A stretch of DNA of 64,000 nucleotides from Candidatus Aenigmatarchaeota archaeon (GCA_016933455.1 JAFGAZ010000012.1:1625-65624), one strand, 5' to 3'. Positions 7,230-63,100 are shown, numbered from the stretch's first letter. Made by a program: numbers and translations. The notes: generated from the letters alone by a model not told the origin.

Positions 7230-7235
7230 CAACAT

Positions 7236-42255: not shown

Positions 42256-42308
42256 TTTCTTATAATCGAATAAATAAATATCTCTTCTAAATAACTATAA
42301 CATAATAT

Positions 42309-42382
42309 GCCTTGGTAGCTCAGCCTGGTAGAGCGCTTGCTTGGTAAGCAAGAGGTCGCGAGTTCGATTCTCGCCCAAGGCT
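42309..42382 (+). tRNA. tRNA-Thr (anticodon GGT)
   Basis: Acceptor GCCTTGG/CCAAGGC, D-arm GCTC..GAGC, anticodon stem CTTGC/GCAAG with loop TTGGTAA, T-arm GCGAG-TTCGATT-CTCGC. Confidence 0.85.
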
Positions 42383-42390
42383 CTTTAACA

Positions 42391-42399
42391 TTTAAATAA
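42391..42399 (+). promoter_or_regulatory. TATA-box-like element for tRNA-Pro
   Basis: TTTAAATAA centred about 27-30 nt upstream of the tRNA 5' end (42425). Confidence 0.45.
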
Positions 42400-42424
42400 T
42401 CTTCTTCTATATTCTTTCTATTGC

Positions 42425-42499
42425 GGGCTCGTAGTATAACTTGGTTTAGTATTCCAGCTTTGGGAGCTGGAGATCGGAGTTCAAATCTCCGCGAGCCCA
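42425..42499 (+). tRNA. tRNA-Pro (anticodon TGG)
   Basis: Acceptor GGGCTCG/CGAGCCC, anticodon stem CCAGC/GCTGG with loop TTTGGGA, T-arm CGGAG-TTCAAAT-CTCCG, discriminator A. The D-stem is weak (two G-U pairs). Confidence 0.8.
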
Positions 42500-43093
42500 T
42501 TAAATTTTTCTAATAAATGTCAGAAAACCCGTGTGCGCAAGCATTTGTGTTTTAGGTCTAGTGTATGTGTCTCCCTCTATCTGCCACTCTCTTTGAAGCT
42601 TCTCCAAAATCTTCGGCTTTCCAAATTCGTACTTTTGCACTTCCTTCCAAAGGTCTTGTATCTGCTCGATGTGCATGGAGTATACAACAAGATATCCTCC
42701 TGACTTTAACGCTTTGAAGGCATGGCCTACAACCCTTTCGGGATTTTTCATGTCCAGTGTCACCAAGTCAACATCCTTTTCCTTTATGCCTTTGGTAATG
42801 TCAGCATTCTTTATCTTGACGTTCTTGAAGCCGGCTTTCTTTATGTTGGCGCTTGCAATGTCAAAGAACCTCTCCTCTTTTTCGTATGTGTAGACCTTGC
42901 AGCCCAGATTGCCAAGAAAAAGCGAAAGAAAACCTGAGCCTGAACCAGCATCAACCACTTTCCAGTCGTGCGTGCAGCCAGTAAAGGCTATGATATCGCC
43001 AATGTCTTTTTGCGTTATTACAGCAGGGCCCCTTTTGGCCTTGCGCAAAAAGTCGTTTATGTTTTCAAGACTCTTCATAATAATCTTTCTCAT
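42500..43093 (-). CDS. trmI: tRNA (adenine-N1)-methyltransferase, TrmI/Gcd14-like
   Basis: VVDAGSGSGFLSLFL (motif I), VDLVTLDMKNP, LKSGGYLVVY. Confidence 0.7.
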   Translation of the reverse strand: MRKIIMKSLENINDFLRKAKRGPAVITQKDIGDIIAFTGCTHDWKVVDAGSGSGFLSLFLGNLGCKVYTYEKEERFFDIASANIKKAGFKNVKIKNADITKGIKEKDVDLVTLDMKNPERVVGHAFKALKSGGYLVVYSMHIEQIQDLWKEVQKYEFGKPKILEKLQREWQIEGDTYTRPKTQMLAHTGFLTFIRKI

Positions 43094-45487: not shown

Positions 45488-46660
45488 CTAAAGCTTCCAA
45501 AAGCTCTTTTTCTTCTTCTCTTTGCTCTTAACATTATGCTTTCTAACGGCCCTTTCAACTGTTTTTAGGACCTTTTTGTCATTGCCAACACCGCATGTGT
45601 TGCCAACCCCTATGAGTAGTATTTTTTCGTTTTTCTTGGACCTTTTCACAGAATCCAATATGCTCTCCTTTGCATTTGCAACTGAGTCGTATATCTCCTT
45701 TTTCATTGGCATTAGGGCTTCCATGTCAGAGACCTTTACCACAACAGCGTCCAAAGGCATCATCTTCTTGGCTGCAAAGTCCTCTATTGCAAACCTCTCA
45801 ACGCCTATGCCTCCCATTGCAACTCCTACACCCTCTGCTATTATGCCGGTCTTTTCTCCCTCAAGCTTGAGGCCTGCGTCAACTGTTATTATCTTGTTTA
45901 TTTTCTGCTTTTTGGTGAACTTTGTTAGGAACTTGCCCGGGTTTCCTGTTGTTGCACCTGGTCCGTCTGCCTTTGAAACCCATACCTGCCTGCCCTCTAT
46001 GCTTGTCTTGGCCACTGCGAATTCCTCGTCCTTGTAAATTGTCACCTTGCCATCTATCATGCTTGCAGCAACCAAAGGCCCTATGCCGTCGCCTATTGGC
46101 ACGCCGTCCACGAATGCCTTTGTTGCCTTCATGGAAGCTTTTGCCATTCTTGTTATGAGCGGTATTTGCATCTGGATGACCATTGCGTACTGGAACATCT
46201 TGTATTTTTTTATCATCTCGATATAGTGCCTAACTATCTTGGCTATCTGATGCGTTGTTATTGCCCCTGAAAGCGCGTCCCTTACGTTCTTTTTGTCATC
46301 CTCTGATGCATTGGGCATTAGCTGGTTTACAAAATACTTGAACCTGTAATCGTAATTTTTGACCAGATGGTCGAGCTTTCTCATTATGCCGTAAGGATCA
46401 GTGCTTATGGGAGATACTGCGAAAAAGTCCATGAACTTTGATATCTTTTCTTTTTTCTTCTTGTCAGTTCCCTTTGGCAATTTCCTGTATATGTATCCCT
46501 TTGACTTTCTGGCCATCTCCTCAAGGTCTGCGGCTTCTTTTTCAAGCTTCATTATGGTCTGCGCTGTCATAAGCCTTGGTCCGAATAGTATCATTATTAC
46601 AAAAAGCACTAGCCATACTACCGTTGATATCCAGTCACCGCCGAGAAGTTGCGAAATCAT
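45488..46660 (-). CDS. conserved archaeal membrane-anchored protein (DUF1512-like, from memory)
   Basis: N-terminal TM WISTVVWLVLFVIMILFGP, then a 360-aa soluble domain. No catalytic motif recognised. Confidence 0.55.
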   Translation of the reverse strand: MISQLLGGDWISTVVWLVLFVIMILFGPRLMTAQTIMKLEKEAADLEEMARKSKGYIYRKLPKGTDKKKKEKISKFMDFFAVSPISTDPYGIMRKLDHLVKNYDYRFKYFVNQLMPNASEDDKKNVRDALSGAITTHQIAKIVRHYIEMIKKYKMFQYAMVIQMQIPLITRMAKASMKATKAFVDGVPIGDGIGPLVAASMIDGKVTIYKDEEFAVAKTSIEGRQVWVSKADGPGATTGNPGKFLTKFTKKQKINKIITVDAGLKLEGEKTGIIAEGVGVAMGGIGVERFAIEDFAAKKMMPLDAVVVKVSDMEALMPMKKEIYDSVANAKESILDSVKRSKKNEKILLIGVGNTCGVGNDKKVLKTVERAVRKHNVKSKEKKKKSFWKL

Positions 46661-46705: not shown

Positions 46706-47293
46706 CTACAACAAAAACAGCAAAATTGCGGTTGTCACGGGTATTGTTATGTTGTCATCCACTTTTGGCAGTGCTTCGACAAGGGTTGCTGCAATTGCTG
46801 CTATTATTGCCTTTATCGGGTTTGTGAAAAAGTATAGCACGAAAACTGCTGTCAAAAAGAAGGTGGTGCTGCCCTCCCATGTTTTCTTCTTGTTTATTGG
46901 AAGCTTTCTTTTGCCGAAAAAATAGCCTACAAGAGTCGATGTGGCGTCTGCTAATGCTAGCACTGCAATTGACGCTGCTGCTATTTCTGTTGGGAAGATG
47001 AATGTAACCAAAAAGCATCCTATGTAGAAGGTTATGGCGCCGTGGAATGACCTTTCGTTTTTCCTCTTGCAGCTTTTTATTTCCTCCTCGACTATCTCCT
47101 CGAATTCGTCTAGCTTCTTGTTTCGGACAAGCTTGTATTTGTTCTTGTTCTTCATGTATTCGTCTAGTATCAGGAAAGAAAGCGATGTTGCAAGCATTGC
47201 CAGCGAGGCCAAGAACTTGCCAAGTATGTAGATTAGGGCTATGCTGAATATGCCCATTGCATGTATTGTTTTTCTTTTGATTTCCCTGTTCAT
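46706..47293 (-). CDS. CTP_transf_1-family membrane enzyme (polyprenol/dolichol kinase or CDP-alcohol-forming cytidylyltransferase-like)
   Basis: N-terminal REIKRKTIHAMG. C-terminal LADATSTLVGYFFGKRKLPINKKKTWEGS matches the GD..AS..G..FGK....KTxEGS block. Confidence 0.6.
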   Translation of the reverse strand: MNREIKRKTIHAMGIFSIALIYILGKFLASLAMLATSLSFLILDEYMKNKNKYKLVRNKKLDEFEEIVEEEIKSCKRKNERSFHGAITFYIGCFLVTFIFPTEIAAASIAVLALADATSTLVGYFFGKRKLPINKKKTWEGSTTFFLTAVFVLYFFTNPIKAIIAAIAATLVEALPKVDDNITIPVTTAILLFLL

Positions 47294-47297: not shown

Positions 47298-47597
47298 TCA
47301 CTTCTTTGTTCTTTTCTTTCCTATATATTTTTTGATTGCTTTGAAGAACTTTAGCATTTTGTGGTAGGACTCGTATGAAATAAAGAGTATCAGCCCTATG
47401 AACGAGAAAGTTATGGCTGTCTCGATGTTTGTGACAAGGGGCAAGCCCATGTAGTTGGCAACCCACGGGAACACAAAGCCTGCAACAGAAACCAGAGCGG
47501 CCCTTACAAAGAACCTAAACATCTTGTACGAGACAAAGATTACAACTATGAATACCATGAAGACCAAAATGGATTCCAAGGTCAGCTCCACGACCAT
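47298..47597 (-). CDS. small 3-TM membrane protein (99 aa) with basic tail
   Basis: Three hydrophobic segments. C-terminal KKYIGKKRTKK. 4-nt gap to the downstream gene and 32 nt to minD. Confidence 0.5.
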   Translation of the reverse strand: MVVELTLESILVFMVFIVVIFVSYKMFRFFVRAALVSVAGFVFPWVANYMGLPLVTNIETAITFSFIGLILFISYESYHKMLKFFKAIKKYIGKKRTKK

Positions 47598-47629
47598 ATA
47601 GAATAATGGTGGATTTTCTTTAAAATATG

Positions 47630-48400
47630 TTAATCAGTGCCGAGAAATCTTTTTATTCTGCCCTTAAAGCTCGTGTCCTCTTTGATGCCTATTAGGTGTC
47701 CTGCCAGCCTTTTCATTTCCCTGCTTGCTGAAGACCTGGGTTTGTGCAAAACCAAAGGCGATCTTTTTGCAAGGCTTACCTGGACATTGTTGTCATGCGG
47801 TATGCTGGCTATCACTGGCAGCTCTGTTAGTATCTCAACTTCCTTTCTTGAAAGCTCGTGGCGTTTCTTGGATACCATGTTCATGACAACACCGACCGGC
47901 CTTTTGCCAAGACCCTTTATTATTTCCTTGCATTTTATGACATCCGTGACCGCAGGTATGTTGGGGTTGGTTACAAAGATTATCTCATCGCTTGCCTCTA
48001 TTGCTGATATTGCCTCGTTGCCAAGCCCTGGCGCTGAATCTAGAAGTATGATGTCTGCCTTTTTGTGCAGCTCCTTTATCACGTGCTTTAGCTTCTTTGA
48101 GTCCACGCCCTCTATTTCCCCAAGCCTTATTGACGCAGGTACTATTTTCATGCCGCTTGGATGCTCATACATGGCTTCCTTAAGCTCGGTTTCCCCCCTT
48201 AGCAGGTGGTTTAGTGTGACAGGGCAATAGTACATGCCCAACGACAGGCTAAGATGAGATGTCGTCAGGTTGCAGTCAACTACTGCAACGTTTTTGTTGA
48301 ACTTTTTTGCCAGAGCAGCGCCTAGGTTAGAGACGATTGTGGTTTTCCCCACACCACCTTTGCCTGATATTATGCCTATTTTTCTTTTTTTCTTGACCAT
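47630..48400 (-). CDS. minD: MinD/ParA-family P-loop ATPase (archaeal MinD-like)
   Basis: Deviant Walker A SGKGGVGKTT, Walker B ILLDSAPG. Start at ATG 48400 (MVKKKRKIGII). Confidence 0.85.
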   Translation of the reverse strand: MVKKKRKIGIISGKGGVGKTTIVSNLGAALAKKFNKNVAVVDCNLTTSHLSLSLGMYYCPVTLNHLLRGETELKEAMYEHPSGMKIVPASIRLGEIEGVDSKKLKHVIKELHKKADIILLDSAPGLGNEAISAIEASDEIIFVTNPNIPAVTDVIKCKEIIKGLGKRPVGVVMNMVSKKRHELSRKEVEILTELPVIASIPHDNNVQVSLAKRSPLVLHKPRSSASREMKRLAGHLIGIKEDTSFKGRIKRFLGTD

Positions 48401-48404
48401 GCAA

Positions 48405-49370
48405 TCACTTTGCACTCTTCGTGCTAAGGTTTAGTATCTTTTCCTCGTACTTTGTCCTCATTTCCTCGTAGCTGTGCCTTGATATTAGGCCTTCCCTGTA
48501 CTCTTCCTCAAGCAGGCCCTTGGCCTCTTCAAGGCTTCTTATCTCGTCGTCGACCTTGCTGTCTTGCTTTTCTCGCCTTATCAGCCTTTTTATCTTAAGG
48601 CCAGGTATGCTGCCTGGCGTTATATTGCTTTTTTTATTTCTTCCCAAAACAAAGAACCAAAGAAACATGGCTATAATTATAATTATCAAGGCCAGTATTA
48701 AAATCGTCTCGAATGAAATGCCCTTTGCTTGCGTTACTGGGCTTGTTTCTGCTATTGAAAGGTCGTATTCGGCCTTTTTGACTATAACTTCGACTTCCCT
48801 TATCTTTTCACCCGCCTCGTCGTAAAGCCTGCCGTACACATCGCTTGATGCAGCTTCAAGCAGCAAAGTTGCCTCGTCTATTTGTGCCCTTATCTCGCTT
48901 ACATCGCTGCCCCCTGCAGCTATACCATTTGCCTCGCTTTTTAGGCTTATTAGCTGGTCGCTAAAGTCCTGTATTTCCGATAGTAAGGAGTCTGTTCTTG
49001 ATGCGAATATCTCAACAGAAAAGTCTTCCCATGTAGTGACTTCGTCTGACACCGCTCTTAGTGAAAAGTCAAAGCTTCCGTTCTCCTCCTCGGCAGGAAC
49101 ATAAAGCTTGAATAGGAAAGCTGCTGTTTCTCCTGGCTGCACGCGCTTGGCTTCGTCTTGGGCCTCAAACCATGATGATTTTTCACCATCTATTAAAACC
49201 TGCACATTGTTTAGAGCAACATCTCCCGTGTTTTCCACGTCTATGCTAAGGTATCTTACCCAGCCCTTTTCGACCAGTATGTTTTCCTCAAAGCCTGTTA
49301 TCTCTATGCTTTGAGCAAAGGCTATGCTGGCAAAGAGAAGCATTATTATCAGTATTAGTATTTTTTTCAT
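48405..49370 (-). CDS. type I membrane protein: signal peptide, CARDB/NEW3-like Ig domain, helical stalk, TM, cytoplasmic SHOCT-like tail
   Basis: Start at ATG 49370 (MKKILILIIMLLFASIAFAQS). LSIDVENTGDVALNNVQVLIDG...VQPGETAAFLFKLYVP. TM ILILALIIIIIAMFLWFFVL. Tail EEEYREGLISRHSYEEMRTKYEEKIL. ATGA overlap with the upstream wHTH gene. Confidence 0.65.
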   Translation of the reverse strand: MKKILILIIMLLFASIAFAQSIEITGFEENILVEKGWVRYLSIDVENTGDVALNNVQVLIDGEKSSWFEAQDEAKRVQPGETAAFLFKLYVPAEEENGSFDFSLRAVSDEVTTWEDFSVEIFASRTDSLLSEIQDFSDQLISLKSEANGIAAGGSDVSEIRAQIDEATLLLEAASSDVYGRLYDEAGEKIREVEVIVKKAEYDLSIAETSPVTQAKGISFETILILALIIIIIAMFLWFFVLGRNKKSNITPGSIPGLKIKRLIRREKQDSKVDDEIRSLEEAKGLLEEEYREGLISRHSYEEMRTKYEEKILNLSTKSAK

Positions 49371-49579
49371 TTCGCCCACCACATGATCTTCTCCTTGGGG
49401 CCGTGGCTTGATTTTTCCACCTTGCTGCCAATAAGGCCCATTGACTTTAGCTTGTAGCAGTGAGAATTGGCCGTAGGCCATGTTATCTTAGAATGTTTTG
49501 CAATAAGGTAGGTGGACATGGGTTTTTTAGCTTTCTTTAGAACTTCTAGTATTTTCTTGTCTACCTCGGTTGTTATCAT
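49367..49579 (-). CDS. small winged-helix protein (70 aa)
   Basis: KKILEVLKKAKKPMSTYLIAKHSKITWPTANSHCYKLKSMGLI is an HTH plus wing pattern. Confidence 0.6.
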   Translation of the reverse strand: MITTEVDKKILEVLKKAKKPMSTYLIAKHSKITWPTANSHCYKLKSMGLIGSKVEKSSHGPKEKIMWWAK

Positions 49580-49593
49580 AATATATTAATATA

Positions 49594-51117
49594 TTAATAT
49601 ATATTTAAAAATTCTTCAGCAGACTGCTGCTCTTGTTCCTCGACTTCTTTGACGGCTGATGGCACGATTTCTCTTAGACCGTCTGCAAATACCTGGGCTA
49701 TGTCGTCGTAGCCGTACTCCTGCCAGGACTCTCCTATCTCCGCCAGGGTGTTTTCCACCATGTTCTCTTTTTTCTTGTCCCAAAGGCCCTGACTCTTTAG
49801 CTGCTCGACGTTGTTTTTCAGCTCATCTATGTAGGACTTTATGTCGGTCGTGTTCTCTGCCCTTGAAATCATGTTCAAAATCTCGAAAAAGTTCATCCTT
49901 GCATCCGACTTTAGCACGTTCTCGGATACCTTTGATATCTTGGAGCTTACCTCCTTTAGTTTCTCGAGCATGTTTCGCGATATCTCTGTTTGCAGCCTCA
50001 TGGTTGAGCCGACACCCTCGCCCTCTATCGACTTTAGCCTATCTTCCATTTCCCTGCCCTTTTGTTCTAATAGCGTCATGCCGCTTTCCAGTTCGTTTAT
50101 TATTGATGGCAAAGACTTTATGCTGAAAGATTTCTCTCCCTCCAGTTTCTTTAGTTCTTCCTCCACCTTCTTTAGCAGGCTTTCGTTTTTTTGCTTTAGT
50201 TCGTTGTAGGAGGATTTTGATATCTCGCCCTTTCTGTCCTGCTCTTCCAAAGTTGCCAGAAGCCTTAGAATGTGCTCCTTTTTCGTTCTCATGTTGTCTC
50301 TTCTGTTTATTATTTCCTCTTCGGGTATCTTGAGAACTTCCTGAACGTCTTTTAGCTGCTCTTCTATTTTTTCCCTGCTTGAAACTATGACATTGTTAAC
50401 GCCCTTCTTGAAGATGTCCATGTCGTCCTTGGAAACAAAGCTCCCTAGTTTTATGTTTATCTCGTCCACTGATTTGGTAATTTCCCTGCTCAGATCGTCT
50501 ACCTTTTCTAGCCTTATTTTGAACTGGGGAAAGTCCTTCATCCTATTCTCTGTTTCTATGTAGAATCTCTCTGTTTTTGCAGACAACCTGTCAACATCCC
50601 TTTTCGTCTGCTCCATTTTGGCAGCCGCATCGTCCATCTTCTTTAGGGTCTCTGTCAGGTTCTCGATGCTTCGTATGTTTTCGGTGATGTTTTCCATGTT
50701 CTCTATTTTTCTTACAAGCTCCTTGTTGCCAAGTTCCATCTTTTCTATCTTCATTTCAAGGCTCTCTATTTCGGTTTTTCTTTTTTCCATGTCCTTTCTT
50801 ATCCGCATGGGCTCGATGTCTGTTACAGAATCAGAAAGCATCTTGACCTTTGTTTCCATCTCCTTTATCATGGTCTCTCTTTGGAATATCATGGACCTAA
50901 GCTCGCCTATCTTTTCTGACAGGTCCCGTATTCTCTCGTCTGCTTGGAACTTTACATCTTTAAGAGCAATAAACTCGGCCCCGAGCTTTTCTATCCTCAT
51001 CATTATTTCCTTGAGGCTAACTTCCTGCTCGAACTTGTATTTTTTCTCCTCTTCCTTGGGCCTTTCTTTTATTATGCCCTTTTCCTTGAGTATCTCTACC
51101 ACTGTTTTGGTTTCCAT
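49594..51117 (-). CDS. 507-aa coiled-coil protein (Glu/Lys-rich), function unknown
   Basis: ATG 51117 (the track's 51120 is TTG), 4 nt after the giant gene's stop. Heptad-rich throughout. Internal SHOCT-like motif DRKGEISKSSYNELKQKNESLL. Confidence 0.7.
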   Translation of the reverse strand: METKTVVEILKEKGIIKERPKEEEKKYKFEQEVSLKEIMMRIEKLGAEFIALKDVKFQADERIRDLSEKIGELRSMIFQRETMIKEMETKVKMLSDSVTDIEPMRIRKDMEKRKTEIESLEMKIEKMELGNKELVRKIENMENITENIRSIENLTETLKKMDDAAAKMEQTKRDVDRLSAKTERFYIETENRMKDFPQFKIRLEKVDDLSREITKSVDEINIKLGSFVSKDDMDIFKKGVNNVIVSSREKIEEQLKDVQEVLKIPEEEIINRRDNMRTKKEHILRLLATLEEQDRKGEISKSSYNELKQKNESLLKKVEEELKKLEGEKSFSIKSLPSIINELESGMTLLEQKGREMEDRLKSIEGEGVGSTMRLQTEISRNMLEKLKEVSSKISKVSENVLKSDARMNFFEILNMISRAENTTDIKSYIDELKNNVEQLKSQGLWDKKKENMVENTLAEIGESWQEYGYDDIAQVFADGLREIVPSAVKEVEEQEQQSAEEFLNIY

Positions 51118-51121: not shown

Positions 51122-54100
51122 TCACTTCTCTTCCATGCTCTTGAGCCTGGTGTTTATAGAATCAATATACGTCTCGGCCATCCTCATCTGTCCGGTCTTG
51201 ACTTTTTCACCGGCCAGCTTGAGCTCAAGCTCCATGTCATAAGTATCTATTCCCTTGCTCTTTAATTTTTCTACTTTTTCTGCCAGCTCCTTTATCTTGT
51301 CAGCATAATCCTCGTACTTTTGCAGCTCCTCGTCTGTTAGCCTGAACGTGTCGTGTAGCAATGGCCTAAAGGTTATGAACCATGGCTTGCCGTCGTTGTA
51401 CGATGGGTTTTGAACCATGCCTGTTCCAATGTCTAGCTTGGGTATGGACTCTGCATAGTCCCAGCCGTACTTTGTCTTTATCCTGTTTACGTCTCCCTCG
51501 TACTTTGTTCTGAGCTGCATTTCAGTTGCAATAACAGCCCTTATGGCTCCCTTGAAATCCAAAAGCACCTGCGAAATCATCACAAGACCGATTCCCCACT
51601 TTCTGAATTCCCTGCAAGCTCTCTCTATTGCCTGGTATCCTCCGCCTTCAAGGGAAGCTCCTGATTTCTTGGAGTACTTTGGAAGTAGCCTGTGCACCTC
51701 GTCAAATACTACCATTAGTTTCATCTTCCTTGACTCTGGCCAGGACACCTTGAACATGTAGTCGACAGTCTTTCTGATAAAGTAATCCAGTTGGTCTGCT
51801 GTTAGCTTGTTTAACACGAAAACGGTCATCTCTCCTGGCTTTACATACTTTTCTATCTCAAGCTTGAGGAAGGGATCTTTTATCGGGACAATCGAACCCT
51901 TGAAAGACCTTGCCTCTTCTTCCTTCATGCCGAATTTCTTGTAGTTGTTAATCATTTCCTTGTCATTGTTGGATCTGATAAAGCCTGTCCACTGGGCTGT
52001 GGGGTCGAAGACTATGACTGGAATGTTCTTCTTTAGGGCCTCTTCAGCCATGACCATGGCAGCCACTGTCTTTCCAGAGCCCGTGCCGCCTGCTATTATG
52101 GTGTGGGTTGTCAATTTCTCTTCTTCAATGTAGGCATTTGTATTGGTCTCGGCTATCTTTCCAAGCAAAAGCCCCTTCTTGGGCAGCTTGTTTAGCTTGA
52201 CAGGCCTTACATACCTGCCCCTGACCCTTTTCTGAGAGTGCCATTTCTCGAATAGTTTCCAACCCAAAAGGAAGCTGGGTATTGCTACGAAAAGAACTAT
52301 GTATGTCATCCAGTTGGTGAACAGGTCTATTAGGAATGTTATTATCCATGGCTGGTCGACTACGCTAAATGAAGTCACAGACGTGGCTATCTTGTCGTCG
52401 TACGATGCCACGGCTTCTAGCACGTAAAGACCCAATGCGGTGTCCTCTGGTATTCTCATTCTCCTCACAAAAGTGGTGGACGTTTCAACTGCTATTGATT
52501 CCTCATCCACTGTTAATATTTCCTGGGTTTCAGTAGATTTTATGGTGTAGTTGTTTATTATATCTACTCTTTTAGTCATTCCCAAATTGTATATTGTCAC
52601 CTGGTATTCTAAAATTCCTCCCGGCCTTACTTCTTTTGTTATGGCGTCAACCTTGAGGTCTAGGAGCTTTTCTCTTTCATATTCCACCCTGAGTATAACG
52701 TCTATTGTCTCGACAACTCCGTCGTATTCAACTTTAATCTTGCCGTTGTAAACGCCCGGAATAGTTGTCGGCATTGTTGTGAACTTTATCTTGGCATTGA
52801 CTGTCTCTCCTGCTTGTATGTCTAATGTGTCGTCCTCGAACATTGTGTATGGCCATATGGCGCCGTCAACGGAGAGCTTGACTTGTTTTGCCACTGACCT
52901 CTTGTTTGTTAGGCCTATGCTTACTAATTGGTATTCGCCCGGATAGAGTCTGACTTCGATTAATCTTGTTGTAAGGGTTATGTCTGTTTGTATTGCATCT
53001 TTTTCTTCGACCGTTGTTGTTGGAGCTGACCCTCCTCCTGGTGATCCTCCTGTCGGTCCTGTTGGTGTTGTTCCGCAGTCTGCGGGGCAGAAGGCGCTAG
53101 TTTCTCCATACAGCGATTCGCAAGCACCGTCCCCGCATATGAACTCTGCCACAGCATATGCTCCTGATATTTCCGACATGCTGGTTGTCAGGGTGTTGTT
53201 GAATATGTCAAGAGTCGAGCTAAGCCTTGTCCAGCACGAGTTGTCCGTTGCCGGAGTCCTGTTTGAGAACAGCCAGTTCTCGCACCTGTATATGCCAAGT
53301 GATGTCTCAGAGGAGTAGCCTGTTCCCGTGTAGTTCATGATTAGTGTTGCGTCAGTGTAGTTGAGTATTGTCTGGAAGTACAATGCCTTTGCAACTCTCG
53401 AGTTGGCCCCTCCGATAAGGAACGTTGACAGCGGGTCTATCAGGGTGGCGTTGTCTATATCGGAGGCTATGCTAACGTTGGAAAGGTTCACTGCGTTGTT
53501 TAGAGTGCCAATGCCCACATCATAGTATCTCATGTGCGCTATGTTGCTGTAGTATCCTGAAGCGTTCGATTCAAAGCTGTCAAGCAGGCTTCCTGTTGTG
53601 TTGAACATGTCAAATGATACGTCCACCGGGTAGCTTTCCGCATCTACTGATGTTCCGTTAAACCATGCCGGAACGTATACCTCGAACCATCCTGACTCGT
53701 TGCCCCAGTTGTTCGACGAATCATTCGCAAACACTGTAAAGTAATAGTCGCCGACCTCTGTTAGATTTGATAAAGTATAATCCCAAGTATCTCCTCCTGC
53801 AGGCGACATTGAGTAGTTTGCTACAGTTCCGTTTATTGCTGGGTATGTTACCTGCGCTATCACAGTACTAACTCCGCCTGCGTCAGTTACATTGGCCTCT
53901 ATTGTAACGTCGCTAAGAGGCAAAATAGAGTTGGCCTCTACTGTTATCTCGGGAGGCGTTAGGTCAGGTCCTCCTGTTGCAACTATTCCAAACCATTCTG
54001 CTATTATTCTTATTAGAGATATTATTCTGTCTGCAAAGGCGTTTACGTTCAAAGCTTCTGTTATGTTGACAAGCAGTGTTCTGTATCTGCTAACAGAGTC

Positions 54101-57100
54101 TGTTACTGACATTACAACGCTAACGATCCTTTCGTAAACGCGGCCTGATATGCTGACATCTGTAAGTACATTTATTTGCTCGGTTATCATCATCAAAATA
54201 GACTGCGTTCTTGCTGCAAATTCGTTTAGATAAATGCTGTCAGCTATGTTTCTTGTGAATGACATTAGCCTGTTTGCTGCATCGCTAATTCCAAGAGCTT
54301 GGATCGTATCTCTTATGTAGACAAAGTTCCTTGTGACACTGTCGCCTATGTTGAATGTCTCTGAAATCCTAATGAATAGTGACTGCAACCTGCTTACTAT
54401 TGCGTTCGTATTGAGTGTTTCAGAGACGCTTCTTGTGATACTAGATAGCCTGCTTGCATAATCTGAAGTTGTTATTTGTTGGATTACGTTTATCAGGGTC
54501 GCAAGTGTCCTGTCCACTGTGCTCTGGAAACCAAAGCTGTCTGTTGCTGACCTTATTGCAGAAATTATCCTGCCTGTAATGCTGCTTATATCAAGACTTT
54601 GATTTATCTGCAGTGTTATTGCCTGGATTCTTGAAGCGATTTCATTTATGCTAATAGATTGCTGCAATGTTCTTGAGAACATCATCAGTCTCTGTGAAGC
54701 GTTGTTTATTATAAGCGAGTCTATAATCTCTCTGATGTACACAAAGCCCCTTGAAACACCCGAGGATATGCCAAAGCTTTCTGACATTACCCTTGTCAGA
54801 GCCTGCAGTCTTGCTGCAAGGTTCTGCGCTGTTATGCTCTGTGATATCTGCCTGATTATTGCTTGCAGCCTTGATGCGTAATCAGACAAACCTATTGGAT
54901 TAGTTACACTTCTTACGGCTATCGATATCCTGCTGGACAGCTCGTTTATGTTGAACGAATCTGCAAGTATCCTGGTCAAAGCCTGTAGTCTTGAGACTCC
55001 TTCATTTATGCCAAAGTAGCCAGTTGCTGTTCTGTAAAAGTCAGATAATCTGCTTGCATTGTTTTGCAGACCAAATGACTCTAATATCTCAAGTAGCATG
55101 GCGGTTGTTCTTTCCACAAGCGATTCTATGCCAAGACTGTCTGAAACAGTCCTCATTATTGCCTGCAATCTGCTTGAAACGTTTTCAATTGATATTGTCT
55201 GGCTTATCTGTATTGTTATGTCCTGCAACCTATCAGATAGAACGTTCAAGTTGAGCTGCTGCGTTATAGTCCTTAGGTAGCTGTAAATCTGGTTGCTTGC
55301 GTCGCTTATGTTTATTGTTTCTATCACGTCCCTAAAGTATGAAAAGCCCCTAAATATGTTCGATTCAAAAGTCAGGGTGTCATATACACCTCTTAGCATT
55401 GTTGTTAGCCTCTGCGAAATCTCGTTCACAGACAATTGCTGTGTTATCGATCTTATCACGCTTGCAAATCTTGTGGAATAGTTCTCAATTCCTATCGAAT
55501 CTGAGACGCTTCTTATTATGGTAAATATCCTATTGGAAACTTCGTTTATGTCAAAGGAATCCGTTATCATTCTTGATATCAATTGCAGCCTTGATGCGCT
55601 GTCGCTTATGCCAAAGTAGCCAGTTGCTGTTCTGTAGAAATCAGCAAGCCTGCTTGCGCTGTCGCTCATGCCAAAGCTTTCTGTTATCTGCAAAAGCATT
55701 GCAGTGAGCCTGTCAACTGCGCTGTCTATGCCAAAGAAGTCCGTTACTGACCTCATTATGATTGCAAATCTTTCAGAGATGTTGTTGACGTTTATTGTCT
55801 GTGCAAAGTACCTTGTTATGTCTTGTATTCTGTCTGCTACGTTGTTTATGCCAAGCTGTTCTGACATCATCCTAAAGTAGTTATACAACTGGCCAGTCGC
55901 ATCGCTTATGCTGAACGTGTCGCTTATGCTTCTGAAGTAGACAAAGCCTCTGAATATTCCAGAGTTAAATGATATCGTGTCGAATATATTTCTGAATATG
56001 GATGCGAATCTTTCAGAGACATTGCTCACATTTATCGAGTCGGATAATATCCTAAGTATGCTTGCCATTCTTTCCGATGCTGTTTGCATTGTTATGCTAT
56101 CTGTTGCCGACCTGAAAGCGCTCATCAGTCTTGATGCCGATTCATTGAATTGGAGAATGTTTCCTAATGTTCTAAGTATCGCTTGGAGTCTTGATGCAAG
56201 GTTGCTTATGTTTAGAGTCTCTGTTGCGTTTCTTGTGATCAATGCCAGTCTTGATGACGCATTCTCTATACTAAAGAAGTCTGATATCTGCCTAAACATC
56301 AAAGCCAGCTCTTGCGAAACATTGCTTACGGAAAGCTGCTGGGTTATTGCCCTGAATATTGAAGAGAGTCTGGAGACGCTTTCGTTTAGTGTTATCTGCA
56401 GAGCCACTTCTACTCTGTTGTATCCCATCTTGTCTGCTATTGTCTGCAAATTGAAAGTTATCGTGTCGAATATAATTCTAAGGTATGCGTACATGTTGTT
56501 TGCAGCATCCGTTATGCCGAGGCTTTCAAGCGCCATCCTAATGTATGTTGGTACAAGGCCCGAGCTTGAGGATGCTGAGAAGTATGATGTCACTGATCTA
56601 ATTCCTGTTGCTATTCTTGTTGCATAGTCGTTTAGTGACAGTGCCTGGCTTATCATCTGCGTTATTGACTGCAGCCTGCCAGCCAGATTGTTTAACGCTA
56701 TATTCTGCGTTGCCTGCCTTAGCATTGTTGCAAGCCTTCCTGATGCATTTTCGATGCTGAAAGTTTCGAATACGTCTCTTAGGTATGCAAAGCCTCTTTC
56801 CGTTGCCTGGCCTAGGCCAAACGAATCCGTTACTGTTCTTATTATTTCCTGCAGCCTGCTGCTTGCGGCATTTATTGCGATGCTGTCTGCTATGCTTCTG
56901 AAGATGCTTGCCAGTCTTTCCGAAGCCTCTGATATACCGAAGCTGTCTGTCACTATCCTGAATATAGAGGTTATCCTTTGTGCGGCGTTGTTTATTCCCA
57001 AGCTTTCTGTCAACAGTCTTTGTATTTCAACTAACCTGTTTGCAGAGTTTTGCAATCCTATGGTTTCTGATAGAAGTCTTAACATTGTTGATAACCGTTG

Positions 57101-60100
57101 GGAAATGTTTTCTATTTGGAAAGATTCTGTCACTGACCTTACGAATGAGAAGCCCCTTGAAACCGCATCCGAAAGTTGCAATGTATCGGTTATGCTTCTA
57201 AATATAGATGATAATCTTTCGGCAACGTTTCCTAGGTTTATATCCTGTCCTATAATCCTAAGCATTGCTGTTAGCCTATCTGCCGAGTCGCTTATGCCAA
57301 AGCTTTGCACAACGCTTCTTAGGGTTGCTGTTAATCTGTCAGCTATACTATCAATTCCAAAACTATCTGTCGCTGTTCTATATGCTGACAAAATCCTGTT
57401 GGATATGTTTTCAATCGAAAGCGTTTCTGTTATTTCTGTTATCAAATATTGCAATCTTCCTGCAAAGTTTTCCAAGCTTAATGTATCAGTAACAATTCTT
57501 GAGAAGGTCACCAGCCTGTTGGCATAATTTTCTATACCAAAGGAATCTGCTGTTATTCTCAGGAATGAAAAGCCCCTTTCTATTGCCGAGTCGAATGAAA
57601 GTATTTCATAAACGTTTCTAATAATTGAGGCTATTCTTTCTGCTATGTTGTTTAATGATAACGAGTCTGTAATTTCTCTAACAAAGCTTCCAAGTCTTGA
57701 CATTGAAAATGTCGTTGTGAAATAGTCAGTTATGGTCCTGAAGATGTCACTTAGCCTTCCAGACGTTTCTGTTAATGTGAAACCTTGCAGCGGATTCCTG
57801 TTGTATTCCCCTAGCCTTCCTGTCTCATCGTCTAAGGAAAATATCTGTGAAGAGTTCAGGAAGTGCTCTCCTATGTAGAGGGGTATCTGCAATGACGAAG
57901 ATGTATAGTTTTCTCCTTCCGAAGCTCTAGCTGTGTAGTAGTAGTAACTATTGTCCAAAGTAGTTGTGTCGTTCCAAAGGTTATAGTCTGAGCAGTTATT
58001 GCCTGCTCTACATAATATTTCTTCTGCAGATAATACGCGTGGATATATTTTCACTTCATCTATTGTTCCATTGAAGAATGAATCACCATTCGTTAGTCTT
58101 CTCATAGAACCTATAGTTATACTTCTATCATAGCTTCCCATAGCATTGGATGATACAAATTCGTTTTCTAAACCATTTATATAAAATTTTATTGAACCTG
58201 TATTGTTATCAACAGATATTGCTACATGTGTCCATTCATTATTAGTAATTGTATAGCTACTGTCATATAGATCTCCATTACCATCCATCCATACTAATTC
58301 ATTATCTAATCCGCCGCCTTGATTATTTAATCCAAAATCCCATGCCTCTGTTCCTGTGTATCCTAGACTTCCTTTGCTTACTATTCCTTGCCAGTCATCG
58401 CCTTCATCTTTCCAATTTATCCAAGCTTCAATTGTAATTTTATCTTCTAATGTTAATGATTCTGAATTAGAAATTTCAATATAATCGCCTAATCCATCAA
58501 ATTCTAAGCAGTTCCCATAAGTACAGCCGGATGACCATATTGGTACTCCATGTGTGGAGTTTTTCAAAGTTCCTGTGTTGTTGTTGCCAGTATCATCAAA
58601 TGTGTAATTGTTCTCACCTTCGTCAAAGTGCCATATTGCTGAGACTGTTCCGTTTCTGTAAAAGTCATAGTAGACATCTGAATCGCCTGTGTTCTCTTCT
58701 GACATAGAGAAGTTATTTTCTATGGAGTTGTCTGACCTGGTCTCGTATAGTTCTTTTATTTCGCCTGTTGATAATGAGCGGTTCCACAATCTCACCTCGT
58801 CCATAGTTCCTGTGAAATTTTCCGAATATGCGATATTTGCCCTGCCCAATTTTATTTCCTTTAAGCTGTTGGAAAAGTCACCTTCTCCCGATATGTCGAA
58901 TGAGTTCTCAAAATCCCCGTCCATGAAAATCGAAACATTGTCTCCGAAATAAAAGACTGAGACAGAATGGTGCCAAATGCCGTCATTATAAGAACCAACG
59001 GTGCTTCCGGACTCGCCAGTGCTAACGCCGTCGCTTAATTCAACTCCTACGTTTCCGCCTACTGATAAATATGTGTGCCATCCCTGGCTCCAGGACTCGG
59101 AACCCTTCGAGATGAACCTTTCTTTTCTTCCAGATGATGTAGTTTTGAACCACCATTCAACTGCAAAGTCAGATGAACCGAGCGTGTTCAGGTTGGAATA
59201 GTTGTATATTTCCACAAAGTCAGCAATGCCATCGTATTCCAATGCTTTGCCTAGTTTACCATTAGTCCATGAAGGGCACGCTTCACCTCCACAAACACCT
59301 GTTTGATTTTTCAAGTATCCTGTATTGTTATTTCCTGATTTATCATATGTGATATTACGAATACCTTCATCAAACTTCCAGTATCCGACAAGTCCTGAAG
59401 TATTTACCTCGGCAGTGTTGTTGCTAAGAGTAATGTTTGGCTTTGCCTTGCTAATTAGCATCCATGAAGTGCTTGTCGAGGACGAATAGTTCTCTGATGT
59501 GGAGTAAACGCAGGTATAGTTCCAAAGGCCTGCGGGCAAGACAATTGTCTCATCGATAGGTGTTGTTCCCGTATCGACCTGGCTACCGTTTCTATAAAGT
59601 GTTAGAGTTGCTGAACTATCGCCTGTTACCAAGCTGCATTCTGCTACATCCGTCAGTCCATAGTCTGTGTTGTTGTTGGTAAGCGAGATTGAAACAGATG
59701 ATGTTGCCTTTCCTATATTGATAAAGTACGACTTGGAAGCCGAAGAATAGTTTGTATTTCCAGATGTGTTGTAGACATACCAGTGTGTCTCGTTCGCAAA
59801 TGTCATGATGTCAGACTGTGGATTGCTTGAGCCCACTGAGGTGTTGTAGTATCTGTAAAGCGTGAATGTGGGGACGTTTCCAAATAATCCTGTAAAGTAA
59901 CCTGTTGCATTAGACGCCTGGCCGTATGTATAGCTCTTGTTGCCTTCTGTTCCGTTTATGGTCAGGTTCATGTAGCTTTCTGTCGAAGAGTTCTGGTTTA
60001 TCGTTACAGTGTCAGTAACTCCTGTTGCATTAGCAGTCCAGTTAGCGCCTCCTGTAGCATTGAACCTGTAAGCATATGATCCGACTCCTAGGTATATCTG

Positions 60101-63100
60101 CTCCTGGTAGGTTTCGGTGTCGTCTACCATGGAAGAGTCCCTCCAAAGCTGGTATGTAACGTCGCTGTCTCCGCTGTTGGATTCGGTTCCTGTTACTGTT
60201 GACTGGTAGGGGTATGTTTGCGTTGTTCCTCCTGATATGGACAAGTCCATTGTCGCCTTGCTGACGCTCAAGGGAAGCAGTATTGAAGACTTTGTATAGT
60301 TCTGGGTCGGTGGCATGAAAGCCTCGTAATAGTATGATCCGGCTCCCAAAATCGTTGCGTCATATTCTGTAGAGTTCTTGGCTCCCCTAAGGACTGCTAT
60401 TTCTTCGTCTGTTAATGTCCTGTTATAGACTCGGAATTCGTCAACCATACCGTCGAAATATTCGTTTGAGAAGCATGCCCAGTATGTGTTTCCAACATAC
60501 CAGTAATTGGTATTCGAATCTGCAACAGTACCAAAATCTGACCTGCTGTTGCTTCCAACAAGACCGTTTTCGTCGTATAACTGTATATCGAACACTCCGT
60601 CGTAAGCATCTGTCGAGCTTTCTTGTTTTATTCTAAACACTGCAAAGTACCACTTGTTTTCCCATGTTATGCTGCTTATGCTCTGACCCTTGCCTCCCGA
60701 CTGGTCATAACATGTTCCATATACGCTGTCTACTCCTATAGAATAGCCCCATCTCTTGTAGAAAAGCCAGCTCTGTGAATTCAATTCAGATACATCTGGT
60801 TTGAACCATGCCGTCATGGTGAGATTGTTACCGTTCACAAGAGGCTCTAGACTGTCGCTTCTTACATACTCCTTTTTATCCAATTCCAAGGCCTTTCCGA
60901 ACTTTCCTTGGGTCGCGTTGGGGTCGTTGTCTAGTTGAAGCATGTCTATGTTTGTAGTGAATGGTGTCGTGTCAGCTGCTTCCAATGACCATATTATCTT
61001 ATCTACTTTTTCTGTGTGGAGATCGTCTAGTCTTATCCAATCAAGATTTATGTGCTGGTAGTATCTTGAGAGGTCCGAACGGTTAAAGTCCCATTGTATG
61101 TAATCGATTGTGGAAAGGTCCAAAGCGCCTGGAGCTTCGTCTGTTGGGCTTGAGAGGTCTAATGCATAAGCCTTCCAGTTGGCATACTGGCAGCCCAAGT
61201 CCCAATAGGCCCAATCACCTGAAGTGTCGTATGCATAAAGTCTAAGGTAATCTGTTTCTTCGCAAGGAACACAGTGTGACATCATGAAATGTAGGTAAGA
61301 ATTTGAAGACCAGTCCCAGTTTCCTGTTGGGTTATATCTGAAATAATAATCCGTGTTAGTGCTCAAATCGTCCCCATAAACATAGAACCTTACGTAATAG
61401 TCCCCTTCCCTGTTGGAATCCACTATTGATATTGAAGACGACCCTCCAGTATTGTTTTTTGACCAATCTGTTATTGACTCGCAGTTTGTTATTGTTGTAT
61501 TGCTGCCTCCGTTTGAATTGTCCTTTCCTCCATATCCGTTCATGTAAGCCATATAGAGCCATTTATTCTCCCAATTATCCGAGGAAAAGTCAATGTCCCA
61601 GTAGCGGTAGTTGTCGTCAGAGTCGTATACGTATACTCTTGCTTGATTAAAGTCTGTGCTAGATCTATTATTTCTGATCCAGAATGTCTGCTCAAAGTTG
61701 TTATTCCAATTCCACGTTCCTGAGGGATCGTAAGATATATTGTATGTGTTGCTTGCCGAAGGTGATGAAACCGTGTCTTTCAAAGAGTATGTTCCGTCCT
61801 TCTTTTCAGTATAATCCAGTGAAAGGCTTGTTCCTGTAAAGTCTGATGTTGATTCCATCGAGCTCGTGGTTGTCGGTGTTGGATAAAGCCTTGCATCGGA
61901 GTTTGATTCGCTTGCGTCATGAACAATTGAGCCTTCTATTTCGTCAAAAGACCAGTAGAGTATGTAATCATCCAGAGTGTTCGTTGTGTTATTTACTCTG
62001 AACATGTAGGCTCCGTTGATATCATTTGCATTGTTTTCGGACACGCTAAAGTTCGTCTGCGTTCCGTATGTTACCGATGATTGGTATATTTCCTTTATTT
62101 CATCTGATGAAAGTGTTCTGTTCCATACCCTAACCTCATCTATGGTGCCATTCATTATTCTTACTGCATCGTTTCCCTTTCCTATTATAACGCTATTCGA
62201 ATCGTTTCTCAAAACTCCTGTAACGGTAAATAAGAAGCTATTTACCAATGTTCCATTTACATATATTTTTCCGGTCCCGTTAGGTAGATAAGTTCCAACG
62301 ACATGATACCAAGCATTTGTCTGTATGTCTATATCCCCGCTGTTGTCGCAGTCCCAATCCGTGTCATTTGCTACACAGAATTCTATACCGTCAACTCCCG
62401 TATGGAAAACTATTTCATACGCATTTCCGTATTGGACTTTTCCTATTATCGGATAAACTTCTCCTCCACTAAACTCATTTAACTTGGCCCAACCTTCTAC
62501 GGTTAATTCGTTCATACTGCCTAGAGAATTTGAATCCTGGATTTCTACATAATCCCCTTCACCGTCAAACTCCAAACCTTGACCGAATCTTCCCTCTGTC
62601 CATGTCGGCACACCGTGCGTCGAGTTCTGCAAAGTTCCGTCATTATCCCAACCACTTGCGTCATATGTCGTGTTACCGATACCCTCGTCTAACTTCCAGT
62701 AGCCTACAAGACCGGAAGTGTTGACTTCTGCTGTATTGTTGCTCAACGTGATGTTCGGCTTTGCCTTGCTAATTAGCATCCAGGATGTGCTTGTAGAGGA
62801 CGAGTAGTTCTCTGATGTTGAATAAGCGCAAGTATAGTTCCAAAGTCCTGCAGGGAGTACTGTTGTTTCGTCTATTGGTGATGTTCCTGTGTTAGTTATC
62901 GTCTGATTTCTATACAATGTCAATGTGGCTGAGCTATCTCCTGTTACAAGCGAACATTCTGCTATGTTTGTCAAGCCGTAATCGGTATTGTTATTGGTTA
63001 ATGCTATTGAGACTGACGAAGAACCCTTGTTGACCAAAGCATAATACGTCAGACCTGTAGAGTTGTCTGAATAATTCTCGTTTCCTGTTGCATTTACCTT

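Follow-up and report, generated by a model that had tools for sequence, protein, structure and literature searches.

A conserved four-part gene module containing a SPEARE-type ATPase protein in DPANN archaea

Archaea of the DPANN group account for much of the diversity of the archaea and spend their lives fixed to host cells, which raises the question of how they attach and exchange material. Giant surface proteins of the SPEARE type are the most cited attachment candidates and have been discussed, so far, as single proteins with disputed domains. One such giant is encoded on the minus strand of a 64,000-nt stretch of DNA from Candidatus Aenigmatarchaeota archaeon (GCA_016933455.1 JAFGAZ010000012.1:1625-65624), which we call the window. 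Directly behind it follow genes for a coiled-coil protein, a winged helix-turn-helix (wHTH) protein, a membrane protein with an immunoglobulin-like (Ig) domain and one transmembrane (TM) helix (Ig-TM), an ATPase of the MinD type, and a protein with three TM segments (3-TM). Does the giant work alone, or do some of these neighbours work with it? A preliminary description of the window considered it plausible that all five form one module with the giant, and took the giant as a candidate part of a multi-component system rather than a lone adhesin. We find a conserved four-part module—the SPEARE-type ATPase protein, the coiled-coil protein, a surface protein with a motif-bearing tail, and MinD. 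The five-gene proposal survives for the coiled-coil, Ig-TM and MinD genes, for the wHTH gene in part, and not for the 3-TM gene. That the giant belongs to a multi-component system is supported by partners conserved across lineages, flanks and gene orders, so that the condition named beforehand as refuting it, neighbours that are not conserved, did not hold for these three; how such a system might act, we infer.

Genes that stay with the ATPase gene

Conservation of the gene neighbourhood had been proposed as the check on that description, and we ran it. Loci were gathered by scanning metagenomes with an alignment of the giant's ATPase domain; a profile for each gene was run on all open reading frames (ORFs) of 80 loci, which fell into 55 clusters when dereplicated at 90% identity, and named metagenome-assembled genomes (MAGs), labelled Aenigmarchaeota, Micrarchaeota and Parvarchaeota, were added. 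The coiled-coil gene was counted in the 52 clusters with at least 1.5 kb of DNA downstream of the ATPase gene, and the other genes in the 30 clusters with at least 9 kb.

The coiled-coil gene lies downstream of the ATPase gene in 51 of the 52 clusters, and in 44 of them within 200 bp. An Ig-TM gene encoding the same tail is present in 25 of the 30; 18 have a MinD gene no more than 10 kb from the ATPase gene, 17 have both, and 26 have one or the other. The figure for MinD is a lower bound, the Ig-TM homologue, often ~2,000 aa long, filling the fetched flank. Archaeal genomes of 1-2 Mb have only a few MinD paralogues, and adjacency within 10 kb by chance would amount to a few percent. The wHTH gene appears in 3 of the 30 clusters, and the 3-TM gene in 10, never where the downstream gene DUF1512 is missing; in the clusters without DUF1512, Ig-TM is found in 15 of 20 and MinD in 8 of 20. 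The MinD gene itself occupies one of three positions, depending on the locus: past the coiled-coil gene, past the Ig-TM gene, or on the opposite strand. Linkage that outlasts rearrangement is a classic sign of functional coupling.

The module is conserved in seven named genomes (loci L002, L008, L010, L012, L014, L015 and L097). In four loci of relatives found through the Ig-TM protein (two of them from Aenigmatarchaeota MAGs), the order is giant or ATPase gene, coiled-coil, wHTH where there is one, and Ig-TM; the MinD gene comes directly next in three of the four, and in L012 the nearest MinD gene lies ~9 kb further on. The contig of L011, from a Micrarchaeum MAG, begins at the coiled-coil gene, and from there on the order is identical. 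L097, labelled Parvarchaeota, encodes a giant of 4,833 aa, a coiled-coil protein of 473 aa, an NPCBM_assoc surface protein of 1,712 aa and a MinD of 236 aa, and its downstream flank—a GTPase, a RIO kinase and S15—is wholly different. In distant loci, the Ig-TM homologue is the last ~320 aa of a surface protein of 1,200-1,500 aa. In some Aenigmarchaeota the ATPase protein is short, 722-728 aa, and made up of a signal peptide, a Cys-rich stub, two Ig domains, a TM helix and the ATPase, and followed by the coiled-coil, Ig-TM and MinD genes without the wHTH gene; in these loci the adhesin may be encoded separately.

Some individual loci have features of their own. In two with the short ATPase (L014 2203-4434; L015 6351-8907), the upstream genes encode a large beta-helix protein and four small conserved proteins, secreted or in the membrane, and the wHTH-like gene of L015 (72 aa) is upstream as well, instead of lying between those for the coiled-coil and Ig-TM proteins. 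In L010, an Aenigmatarchaeota locus, a second coiled-coil protein (5901-7247; 448 aa, SMC-like matches) stands where the wHTH gene would be, before the large Ig-TM gene; an NCBIfam scan of lineage-specific extra genes in L010, L011 and L014 identified this one only. A separate second ATPase ORF lies between the giant and coiled-coil genes in L016 (9001-10659), L022 (12306-13616) and L077 (872-2167); some of these are perhaps frameshifts.

Two of the partners also have a piece of sequence in common. The preliminary description had noticed a short element, which it called SHOCT-like, in both the Ig-TM and the coiled-coil protein; the element is real and specific, and the SHOCT label was not confirmed by hidden Markov model searches. 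It is a helical hairpin of 36 aa, found at aa 283-318 of the coiled-coil protein (50164..50271, minus strand) and at aa 280-315 of the Ig-TM protein, in the cytoplasmic C-terminus (48426..48533, minus strand), where it is invariant in the tail alignment. The near-invariant block of the Ig-TM tails, in an alignment of homologues, reads LLEEEYREGLISxxSYEEMKxKYEEKIL, and in the AlphaFold2 model of the Ig-TM protein it takes the shape of a helix, an EGLIS turn and a second helix.

How specific is this element? A strict regular expression missed distant copies, and profiles were used instead. By profile, one to three copies are present in 52 of 53 coiled-coil proteins, and a single copy, 1-17 residues before the C-terminus, in 28 of 30 Ig-TM proteins; the coiled-coil homologues of close relatives have one copy, those of L010-L012 two or three. 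None of the 56 ATPase proteins and none of the 22 MinDs match it, and among 346 other ORFs (of at least 150 aa) two do, both encoded directly downstream of an ATPase gene. To avoid circularity, a second profile was built from the Ig-TM tails alone; this found 42 of the 53 coiled-coil proteins and none of 424 other ORFs.

As to its name, by eye the motif resembles the SHOCT pattern, G-h-I-[ST]-x-x-E-[YF]-x-x-x-K-x-K, a likeness that serves as a lead only. Like SHOCT, it is a short two-helix element at a cytoplasmic C-terminus. It differs in being longer, at 36 aa, with a conserved LLEEEYRE lead-in, and in occurring internally, and repeated, in the coiled-coil protein. Pfam SHOCT (PF09851) was not listed for ten motif-bearing fragments of Ig-TM tails and coiled-coil proteins at E <=10, although HMMER filters may conceal very weak matches. 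The scans returned just GvpG (E 5.6e-4), CdvA (E 0.005-0.014) and DMAP_binding, all sub-threshold, and SHOCT was set aside as an identification.

The proteins and their genes in the window

The 3' part of the giant gene extends from the window end at 64000 to the stop codon, TGA, at 51124-51122 (51122..64000, minus strand), a stretch of at least 4,292 codons that is open at the window end. There is no stop codon in 63814-64000, upstream of the listed TTG start, and the frame reads through to base 64000; the N-terminus, and any signal peptide, therefore lie outside the window. Pfam finds Laminin_G_3 in four stretches (E 5.5e-72) plus Laminin_G_2, and near the C-terminus DUF87 (E 1.9e-9), ResIII (E 4.4e-5), HerA_C and FtsK. 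Pfam reported no protease family for the 4,230 aa that the window encodes, the N-terminus being outside it. The gene is a member of the published SPEARE architecture, which the preliminary description had failed to recognize.

The last 730 aa were modelled by AlphaFold2 on the basis of 49 homologues (mean predicted local distance difference test score, pLDDT, 82.7), and the model shows in order a disordered linker rich in Cys, Pro and Thr, two Ig sandwiches, a long TM helix, a RecA-like ATPase and three end helices. The two membrane-proximal Ig-like beta-sandwich domains (52361..52981, minus strand, as are the other parts of the giant, the five genes behind it and the signals between them) are model residues 112-318, with pLDDT >90. 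The single TM helix (52259..52348) appears in the hydropathy plot as one segment, aa 3823-3852, and in the model as helix 323-365, with the ATPase after it. The cytoplasmic, HerA-like P-loop ATPase core occupies 51350..52192, with Walker A at 52067-52090 and Walker B at 51683-51712, and the three-helix C-terminal tip (51128..51334; model helices 661-729) keeps its consensus among homologues. The ATPase is probably active, because Walker A, Walker B and a REFRKWG block are invariant across the 49 sequences.

What kind of ATPase is it? The top Foldseek matches in the PDB are HerA structures, Sulfolobus HerA (4d2i, E 6e-13) first and then Sir2-HerA, DUF4297-HerA and HerA-NurA; none of the 50 matches listed for the ATPase part is a VirB4, TrwB or FtsK structure. 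Scores for curated families tell of a more distant kinship: 29.7 bits against a cut-off of 800 for HerA_Thermprot, 41 against 600 for CedD, 27 against 366 for TraD, and 17.4 against 643 for VirB4 (TIGR00929), the CedD and TraD similarities being to the Walker region only. TrwB_AAD_bind (23.7 bits) extends over just 45 residues, and FtsK PF01580 (29.4 bits) over 45 residues around Walker A. Scans of the ATPase region found neither a CagE_TrbE_VirB or VirB4 N-terminal domain (Pfam, NCBIfam) nor an FtsK gamma domain (Pfam), and no HAS-barrel is visible in the model, just a short beta-hairpin between the TM helix and Walker A. Membership of CedB/CedD (PMC11868833), TraD or VirB4 was rejected, the resemblance being confined to Walker A. 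With scores far under all curated cut-offs and a HerA fold, the domain is placed in the FtsK-HerA superfamily, nearest to HerA in fold and outside every named family. Its own family is large: 361 representatives at 50% identity (E <=1e-30). Among the 150 listed the longest has 7,878 aa, and in most the ATPase is at or near the C-terminus.

The coiled-coil protein (507 aa; 49594..51117) is cytoplasmic, with no TM segment, and its gene is the closest-linked accessory. Charged residues make up 40.6% of it and Pro 1.2%, and heptad periodicity covers 418 of its 507 residues, against 203 +/- 52 in shuffled sequences; statistics and composition agree with the name it was given. Its NCBIfam matches are to SMC/Rad50-type coiled coils only, and among the motif-bearing fragments scanned a CdvA coiled-coil model (PF18822) scores 16-17 bits, against a cut-off of 30, in three. 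An N-terminal EKIGELRS region is conserved among homologues, which the Joint Genome Institute (JGI) annotates as 'chromosome segregation ATPase'.

The Ig-TM protein (321 aa; 48405..49370; locus tag JW700_02730) comprises a signal peptide, an Ig domain, a three-helix bundle, the TM helix, a basic linker and the motif tail. Its start was set at the MKK signal peptide by alignment of homologues. The exact protein is recorded, under that locus tag, for an NCBI MAG, and an identical fragment is present in a Logan assembly (run SRR13394437). In the AlphaFold2 model (pLDDT 79) the Ig sandwich spans residues 22-122, the three-helix bundle 125-209 and the TM helix 220-243; beyond these lie a disordered basic linker and the helix-turn-helix tail. 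The domain had been labelled CARDB/NEW3-like, a label that the scores do not confirm: NEW3/NPCBM_assoc scores 17.3 bits against a gathering threshold of 24.4, and Foldseek finds generic Ig-like domains, in keeping with a generic Ig sandwich fold. Long homologues such as that of L097 do carry a recorded NPCBM_assoc match. A second candidate, TIGR04561/PF27867 'membra_charge' (19.7 bits against 30), covered only the TM helix and charged linker, and was rejected. The likening of the protein to a miniature of the giant's C-terminal plan was fair, the Ig domain aligning with the giant's first membrane-proximal one (hhalign probability 73%, E 3e-5). Counterparts share the last ~320 residues and fall into two size classes, ~330-350 aa or >1,000 aa, large ones being encoded in L008 (6626-10912), L010 (7244-10909), L011 (3982-8268), L097 (11432-16570) and many of L017-L096. 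Most relatives, then, have a second surface protein of 1,100-2,100 aa, and the Ig-TM protein of the window is its minimal form.

MinD (256 aa; 47630..48400) was rightly named, passing NCBIfam minD_arch (TIGR01969), the archaeal type, with 237.8 bits against 201.75. It has the deviant Walker A GKGGVGKT at aa 13-20 (48341-48364) and a basic, amphipathic C-terminus (47633-47671). The C-termini FKGRIKRFLG, GFFSRFLRKFKK and SFITRLLKALKI alternate basic and hydrophobic residues, a character kept among relatives, and the element is putatively membrane-targeting.

The wHTH protein (70 aa; 49367..49579) matches HTH_24 slightly under threshold, at 21.0 bits against a gathering threshold of 21.9 (E 2.4e-4), and is a putative DNA-binding protein, for which the conserved palindrome immediately 5' of its gene is indirect support. 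Between its gene and the coiled-coil gene is a boundary element (49580..49629): a hairpin with a run of five T at 49629-49607, within the last coiled-coil codons; a TATA-like TTTTTAAATATATA at 49611-49598; and a double palindrome, TTAATATATTAATATATT (49597-49580; also written TTAATATATTAA), that abuts the wHTH ATG. The palindrome occurs once in the window, where 0.22 matches are expected. Its pattern, T[CT]AA[TC]ATATT[AG]A, has 14 matches in the 1.48 Mb of fetched loci (the palindrome-bearing ones are L002-L008, L019, L033, L037 and L038). Of these, 11 lie immediately 5' of a wHTH gene, L004 with ERCC4 upstream included, and a twelfth is at a contig end just past a coiled-coil gene, where a wHTH gene may follow. 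Where there is a wHTH gene, the palindrome is always 5' of it, a candidate auto-operator that would overlap the start of a leaderless transcript. With only 3 of 30 clusters carrying it, the wHTH protein, which is probably autoregulatory, is a lineage-specific add-on; in most clusters the proposed small regulator is absent.

The 3-TM protein (99 aa; 47298..47597) has two clear hydrophobic segments, a weaker one and no family match. It is a neighbour for which module membership is unsupported: its gene occurs only where DUF1512 follows, and has its own TATA-like box, ATATTTTAAAGAAAA (47614..47628), ~30 nt upstream of the start. A TTTTTAAAA-type box at that distance is conserved in ~20 related loci and looks like an archaeal TATA promoter for a unit of the 3-TM gene and the next gene, g195, which is 4 nt away. 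The 3-TM gene belongs to this following, housekeeping unit, g195-DUF1512-L10e. In every close relative, g195 (46706-47293; 195 aa, several TM segments, a weak CTP_transf_1 match with E 0.0034) and the DUF1512 gene (45488-46660) lie 3' of the 3-TM gene.

All five accessory ORFs are where the preliminary description had placed them, every coordinate having been rechecked. The intergenic gaps from the giant gene to the 3-TM gene are, in order, 4, 14, -4, 4 and 32 nt: the coiled-coil ATG (51117) comes 4 nt past the giant gene; the wHTH ATG (49579) follows the coiled-coil stop (49594) by 14 nt; an ATGA at 49367-49370 joins the wHTH stop to the Ig-TM ATG; 4 nt separate the Ig-TM stop (48405) from the MinD ATG (48400); and 32 nt separate MinD from the 3-TM gene (47298-47597). 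The packing is as tight as had been claimed, but it is not peculiar to these genes. They are part of an unbroken run of minus-strand genes, 43890-64000, and close spacing continues (4, 45, 30 and 59 nt) across four more: the 195-aa membrane protein g195, DUF1512, ribosomal protein L10e and an epimerase. Because it runs on into L10e and the epimerase, spacing alone is no evidence of a module.

The signals between the genes say more. The hairpin and T-run, the TATA-like boxes and the palindrome suggest three transcription units—giant and coiled-coil; wHTH, Ig-TM and MinD; 3-TM and g195 onward—and this prediction agrees with the phylogenetic pattern of linkage. The T-run and AT-rich elements alone were used, a scan for sigma-70-type promoters having little meaning in an archaeon. 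The genes are linked sub-modules, not one operon, since three loci of one lineage (L004-L006) keep the wHTH, Ig-TM and MinD genes with no ATPase or coiled-coil gene within 10 kb and these signals suggest separate units.

The remaining genes of the window are ordinary chromosomal ones (MCM, GatB, GlmS, a glycogen cluster, tRNAs); the window is a piece of chromosome and not a mobile element. The glycogen cluster (12204-16278) encodes a PF05693 glycogen synthase, a GH57 enzyme and a GT4/GT5 synthase, and adjoins a gene for a 705-aa Beta_propel (PF09826) protein (10035-12152). A minus-strand ORF of 122 aa (42132-42500) overlaps plus-strand tRNA-Thr and tRNA-Pro genes (42309-42499) and is probably spurious.

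What the module may do

We favour, with fair but far from full confidence, the explanation that the four proteins form a membrane complex of which the giant adhesin is one part. The HerA-like cytoplasmic domains, like other ATPases of the HerA family, would assemble into a ring under the membrane, bundling several ectodomains at one spot. The coiled-coil protein, with its one to three copies of the motif, would use the motif to tie the tails of the second surface protein to this ring, and the two surface proteins, so joined, would make one trans-envelope complex. MinD, dimerizing with ATP and bound to the membrane by its amphipathic C-terminus, might place the complex at one site or limit the number of complexes. 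Hydrolysis of ATP by the ring could then perform mechanical work where the cell meets its host, translocating DNA or protein, perhaps, or remodelling the complex. In those lineages that have it, the wHTH protein would repress the transcript of its own gene, Ig-TM and MinD by binding at the palindrome.

Several things weigh against this explanation. The steps that go beyond the conserved neighbours and the shared motif are ones that we infer. A ring would have one TM helix per subunit, and no channel-forming partner was identified. The match to SPEARE was judged on described architecture rather than by direct sequence comparison with NAR1_1133. The 80 loci are the best matches to this ATPase, 41-71% identical, and are part of the family. 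Of the 30 clusters with 9 kb or more of downstream DNA, four have the coiled-coil gene and neither Ig-TM nor MinD. The reverse occurs, too: in L004-L006, where Ig-TM is 54% identical, the wHTH, Ig-TM, MinD, 3-TM, g195 and DUF1512 genes are kept, and no giant, ATPase or coiled-coil gene lies within 10 kb. Nor was a 'Rosetta-stone' fusion of ATPase and coiled-coil protein found among 143 representatives of the ATPase family; 39 of these have at least 150 aa beyond the ATPase, but neither the coiled-coil profile nor the motif finds a match in any of the 39, and no Pfam domain was found in the C-terminal extensions of the eight scanned. Such extensions are an analogy at best.

Two side matters belong here. 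Four of the extensions (P0252, P0289, P0300, P0262) divide into three that are charged and helical, of the ER/K type, and one of low complexity. In L004-L006, the genes ahead of the block encode ERCC4 (a nuclease), a helicase of the Hef type and a soluble DUF87/HerA-like protein of 422 aa (L004 6281-9751). The last was considered as a stand-in for the giant and rejected: only ~70 columns around Walker A are common to both, and it sits with Hef and ERCC4, in what is probably a DNA-repair cluster with a DNA-repair HerA.

A bolder form of the favoured explanation is possible but doubtful. It is that the SPEARE-type protein is the outward subunit of an unrecognised cell-cell contact machine, widespread among DPANN lineages, that uses ATP hydrolysis to move DNA or protein between symbiont and host. 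We are just as tentative about the construction this would imply, in which a membrane-anchored HerA-like ring carries the adhesin and is joined to the second surface protein by the 36-aa hairpin of the coiled-coil protein as adaptor, and a dedicated MinD places or licenses the whole. If true, it would be a new class of contact-dependent translocation system, analogous and not homologous to the coupling proteins of type IV secretion systems (T4SSs) or to EssC of type VII secretion systems (T7SSs).

Might the module serve the cell's own division, instead? An FtsK/HerA-type DNA pump in the membrane, a coiled-coil scaffold and a MinD at the division site would suit chromosome segregation, and the wHTH protein and palindromic site would add a partition-like element in some lineages. 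The ATPase is, after all, in the FtsK-HerA superfamily, MinD is annotated as a division ATPase, the locus lies among housekeeping genes, the short forms of ~725 aa have two Ig domains only and no adhesin, and there are those weak, sub-threshold matches to the CdvA coiled coil. A palindrome, a wHTH protein and a ParA-like ATPase recall, moreover, the cassettes of the SegAB type. But a division module predicts neither the huge, hypervariable, LamG-rich ectodomain of most members nor a second large surface protein linked to it. Its particulars fare no better: the FtsK match is to the Walker A region, with no gamma domain found by Pfam; CdvA reaches 16-17 bits where 30 are needed; the wHTH gene is in just 3 of 30 clusters; and the C-terminus of MinD looks membrane-targeting rather than ParA-like. 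MinD paralogues in Haloferax, furthermore, position motility and chemosensory machinery. We think this reading unlikely.

Improbable as well, in our judgement, is a T4SS-like 'straw' in which a VirB4/TraG-like ATPase drives secretion of effectors into the host. This has been proposed in print (PMC10266531), and to its credit are weak matches to TrwB, T4SS-DNA_transf, TraD, VirB4 and CedB/CedD, all at the Walker A region, and the second ATPase gene directly downstream in L016, L022 and L077, as in nanohaloarchaea. The structural matches argue otherwise, those listed by Foldseek for the ATPase part being HerA structures, with VirB4, TrwB and FtsK absent from the 50, as do the VirB4 score (TIGR00929), a small fraction of the cut-off, and the absence of a VirB4 N-terminal domain from the Pfam and NCBIfam results. 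A Pfam scan of the window locus found no genes like VirB2, VirB6 or VirB8, and the partners that are conserved, the coiled-coil protein and MinD, are not T4SS components. A T4SS role is not supported by fold or partners; its element of translocation at the point of contact overlaps with the complex that we favour.

Could the genes be neighbours and nothing more, brought together by the compactness of DPANN genomes and the synteny of close relatives? The tight spacing runs unchanged into L10e and the epimerase; close Aenigmarchaeota relatives share the entire block as far as an A24 peptidase; promoter-like and terminator-like signals divide the region; and L004-L006 lack the giant and coiled-coil genes. 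Against this, the coiled-coil, Ig-TM and MinD genes stay with the ATPase gene despite changes of flank and order (L010, L011, L012, L097 and the clusters without DUF1512), and a specific motif is confined to two of the partners. For these three genes pure synteny is largely refuted, and as a general account it has little to commend it; for the 3-TM gene it is correct.

Finally, a HerA-based anti-phage defence system is very improbable: PADLOC HerA models do match the ATPase (best E 1.7e-16, 57.9 bits; mad8 2.6e-13), and HerA is the scaffold in the Sir2-HerA and DUF4297-HerA systems found among the PDB matches, but the PADLOC matches are generic HerA ones, absent for the Ig-TM and 3-TM proteins, Pfam and PADLOC found no Sir2, DUF4297, NurA or other effector nearby, the ATPase forms one protein with a TM helix and a giant ectodomain, and in those close Aenigmarchaeota relatives that carry it the locus has a fixed, syntenic, housekeeping position rather than that of a variable island.

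What the favoured explanation offers is a change of object. An ATPase-bearing giant is nearly always accompanied by a coiled-coil partner, and usually by a motif-tailed surface protein and MinD as well, and a 'big adhesin' thereby becomes, on this view, a complex of four defined parts about which predictions can be tested—which pairs bind, what the 36 residues do, whether MinD is the placing ATPase, and how the regulator and palindrome act. Hundreds of genes now called 'hypothetical', or mis-annotated, gain handles for their annotation. The multi-gene module, the shared motif and the regulatory palindrome appear to be new descriptions. They overturn nothing, but they make the function of SPEARE-type proteins directly testable.

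Comparison with known systems

SPEARE proteins were described in Nanohaloarchaeota as giant LamG proteins that lie for the most part outside the cell and have a TM helix near the C-terminus and, inside, a conserved ResIII-like region (Hamm et al. 2019, PMC6642349). The same study pointed to similar intracellular regions in Aenigmarchaeota, Micrarchaeota and Woesearchaeota and to a version of 717 aa. The intracellular region was later re-read as an ATPase resembling VirB4/TraG with a coiled-coil tip behind it, and a T4SS-like 'straw' was proposed, citing the second ATPase gene downstream (PMC10266531, 2023); the serine protease domain behind the acronym is disputed by a later paper. The giant of the window conforms to the SPEARE plan—a long extracytoplasmic part, LamG, Ig, a TM helix near the C-terminus, a P-loop and a coiled-coil tip; no serine-protease or toxin domain was seen in the part of the gene inside the window. 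The papers searched discuss the giant by itself, or together with a proteasome activator and a further VirB4/TraG-like ATPase encoded downstream. The loci with a second ATPase (L016, L022, L077) match the arrangement reported for the nanohaloarchaeal ones. In the papers searched we found no mention of MinD, of a partner with a coiled coil or of a second surface protein with the motif in its tail; coiled-coil proteins reported from type IV pilus loci of DPANN archaea (2023 preprint) belong to a different context.

With the HerA translocases—Sulfolobus HerA-NurA, Sir2-HerA and DUF4297-HerA—the giant's ATPase shares a RecA-like core, Walker A and B, and motifs of the arginine-finger type. Unlike them, it is anchored by a TM helix and fused to an ectodomain, has no HAS-barrel in the model, and has no nuclease or Sir2 partner. 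MinD has its own parallels. The Haloferax paralogues MinD4 and MinD2 position cell-surface machinery, motility and chemosensory, rather than the division ring. Like these, and like TadZ/CpaE of Tad pili, the MinD of the window has a deviant Walker A and an amphipathic C-terminus, and is encoded next to a putative large envelope machine rather than with MinC or MinE; it differs in its candidate partners, a HerA-like adhesin and a coiled-coil protein.

There is a likeness, too, to membrane-anchored motors of the FtsK/HerA superfamily that serve contact-dependent transport: the conjugative coupling proteins TrwB/VirD4, the T7SS proteins EssC/EccC, and archaeal CedB/CedD. In these, as predicted here, a P-loop ring is held to the membrane, by TM segments at the N-terminus, and cooperates with single-pass membrane proteins that have extracellular domains, acting at or across the envelope. 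Where they have two or more TM helices, the ATPase of the window has one, and it has a giant adhesin for an ectodomain, and other partners, instead.

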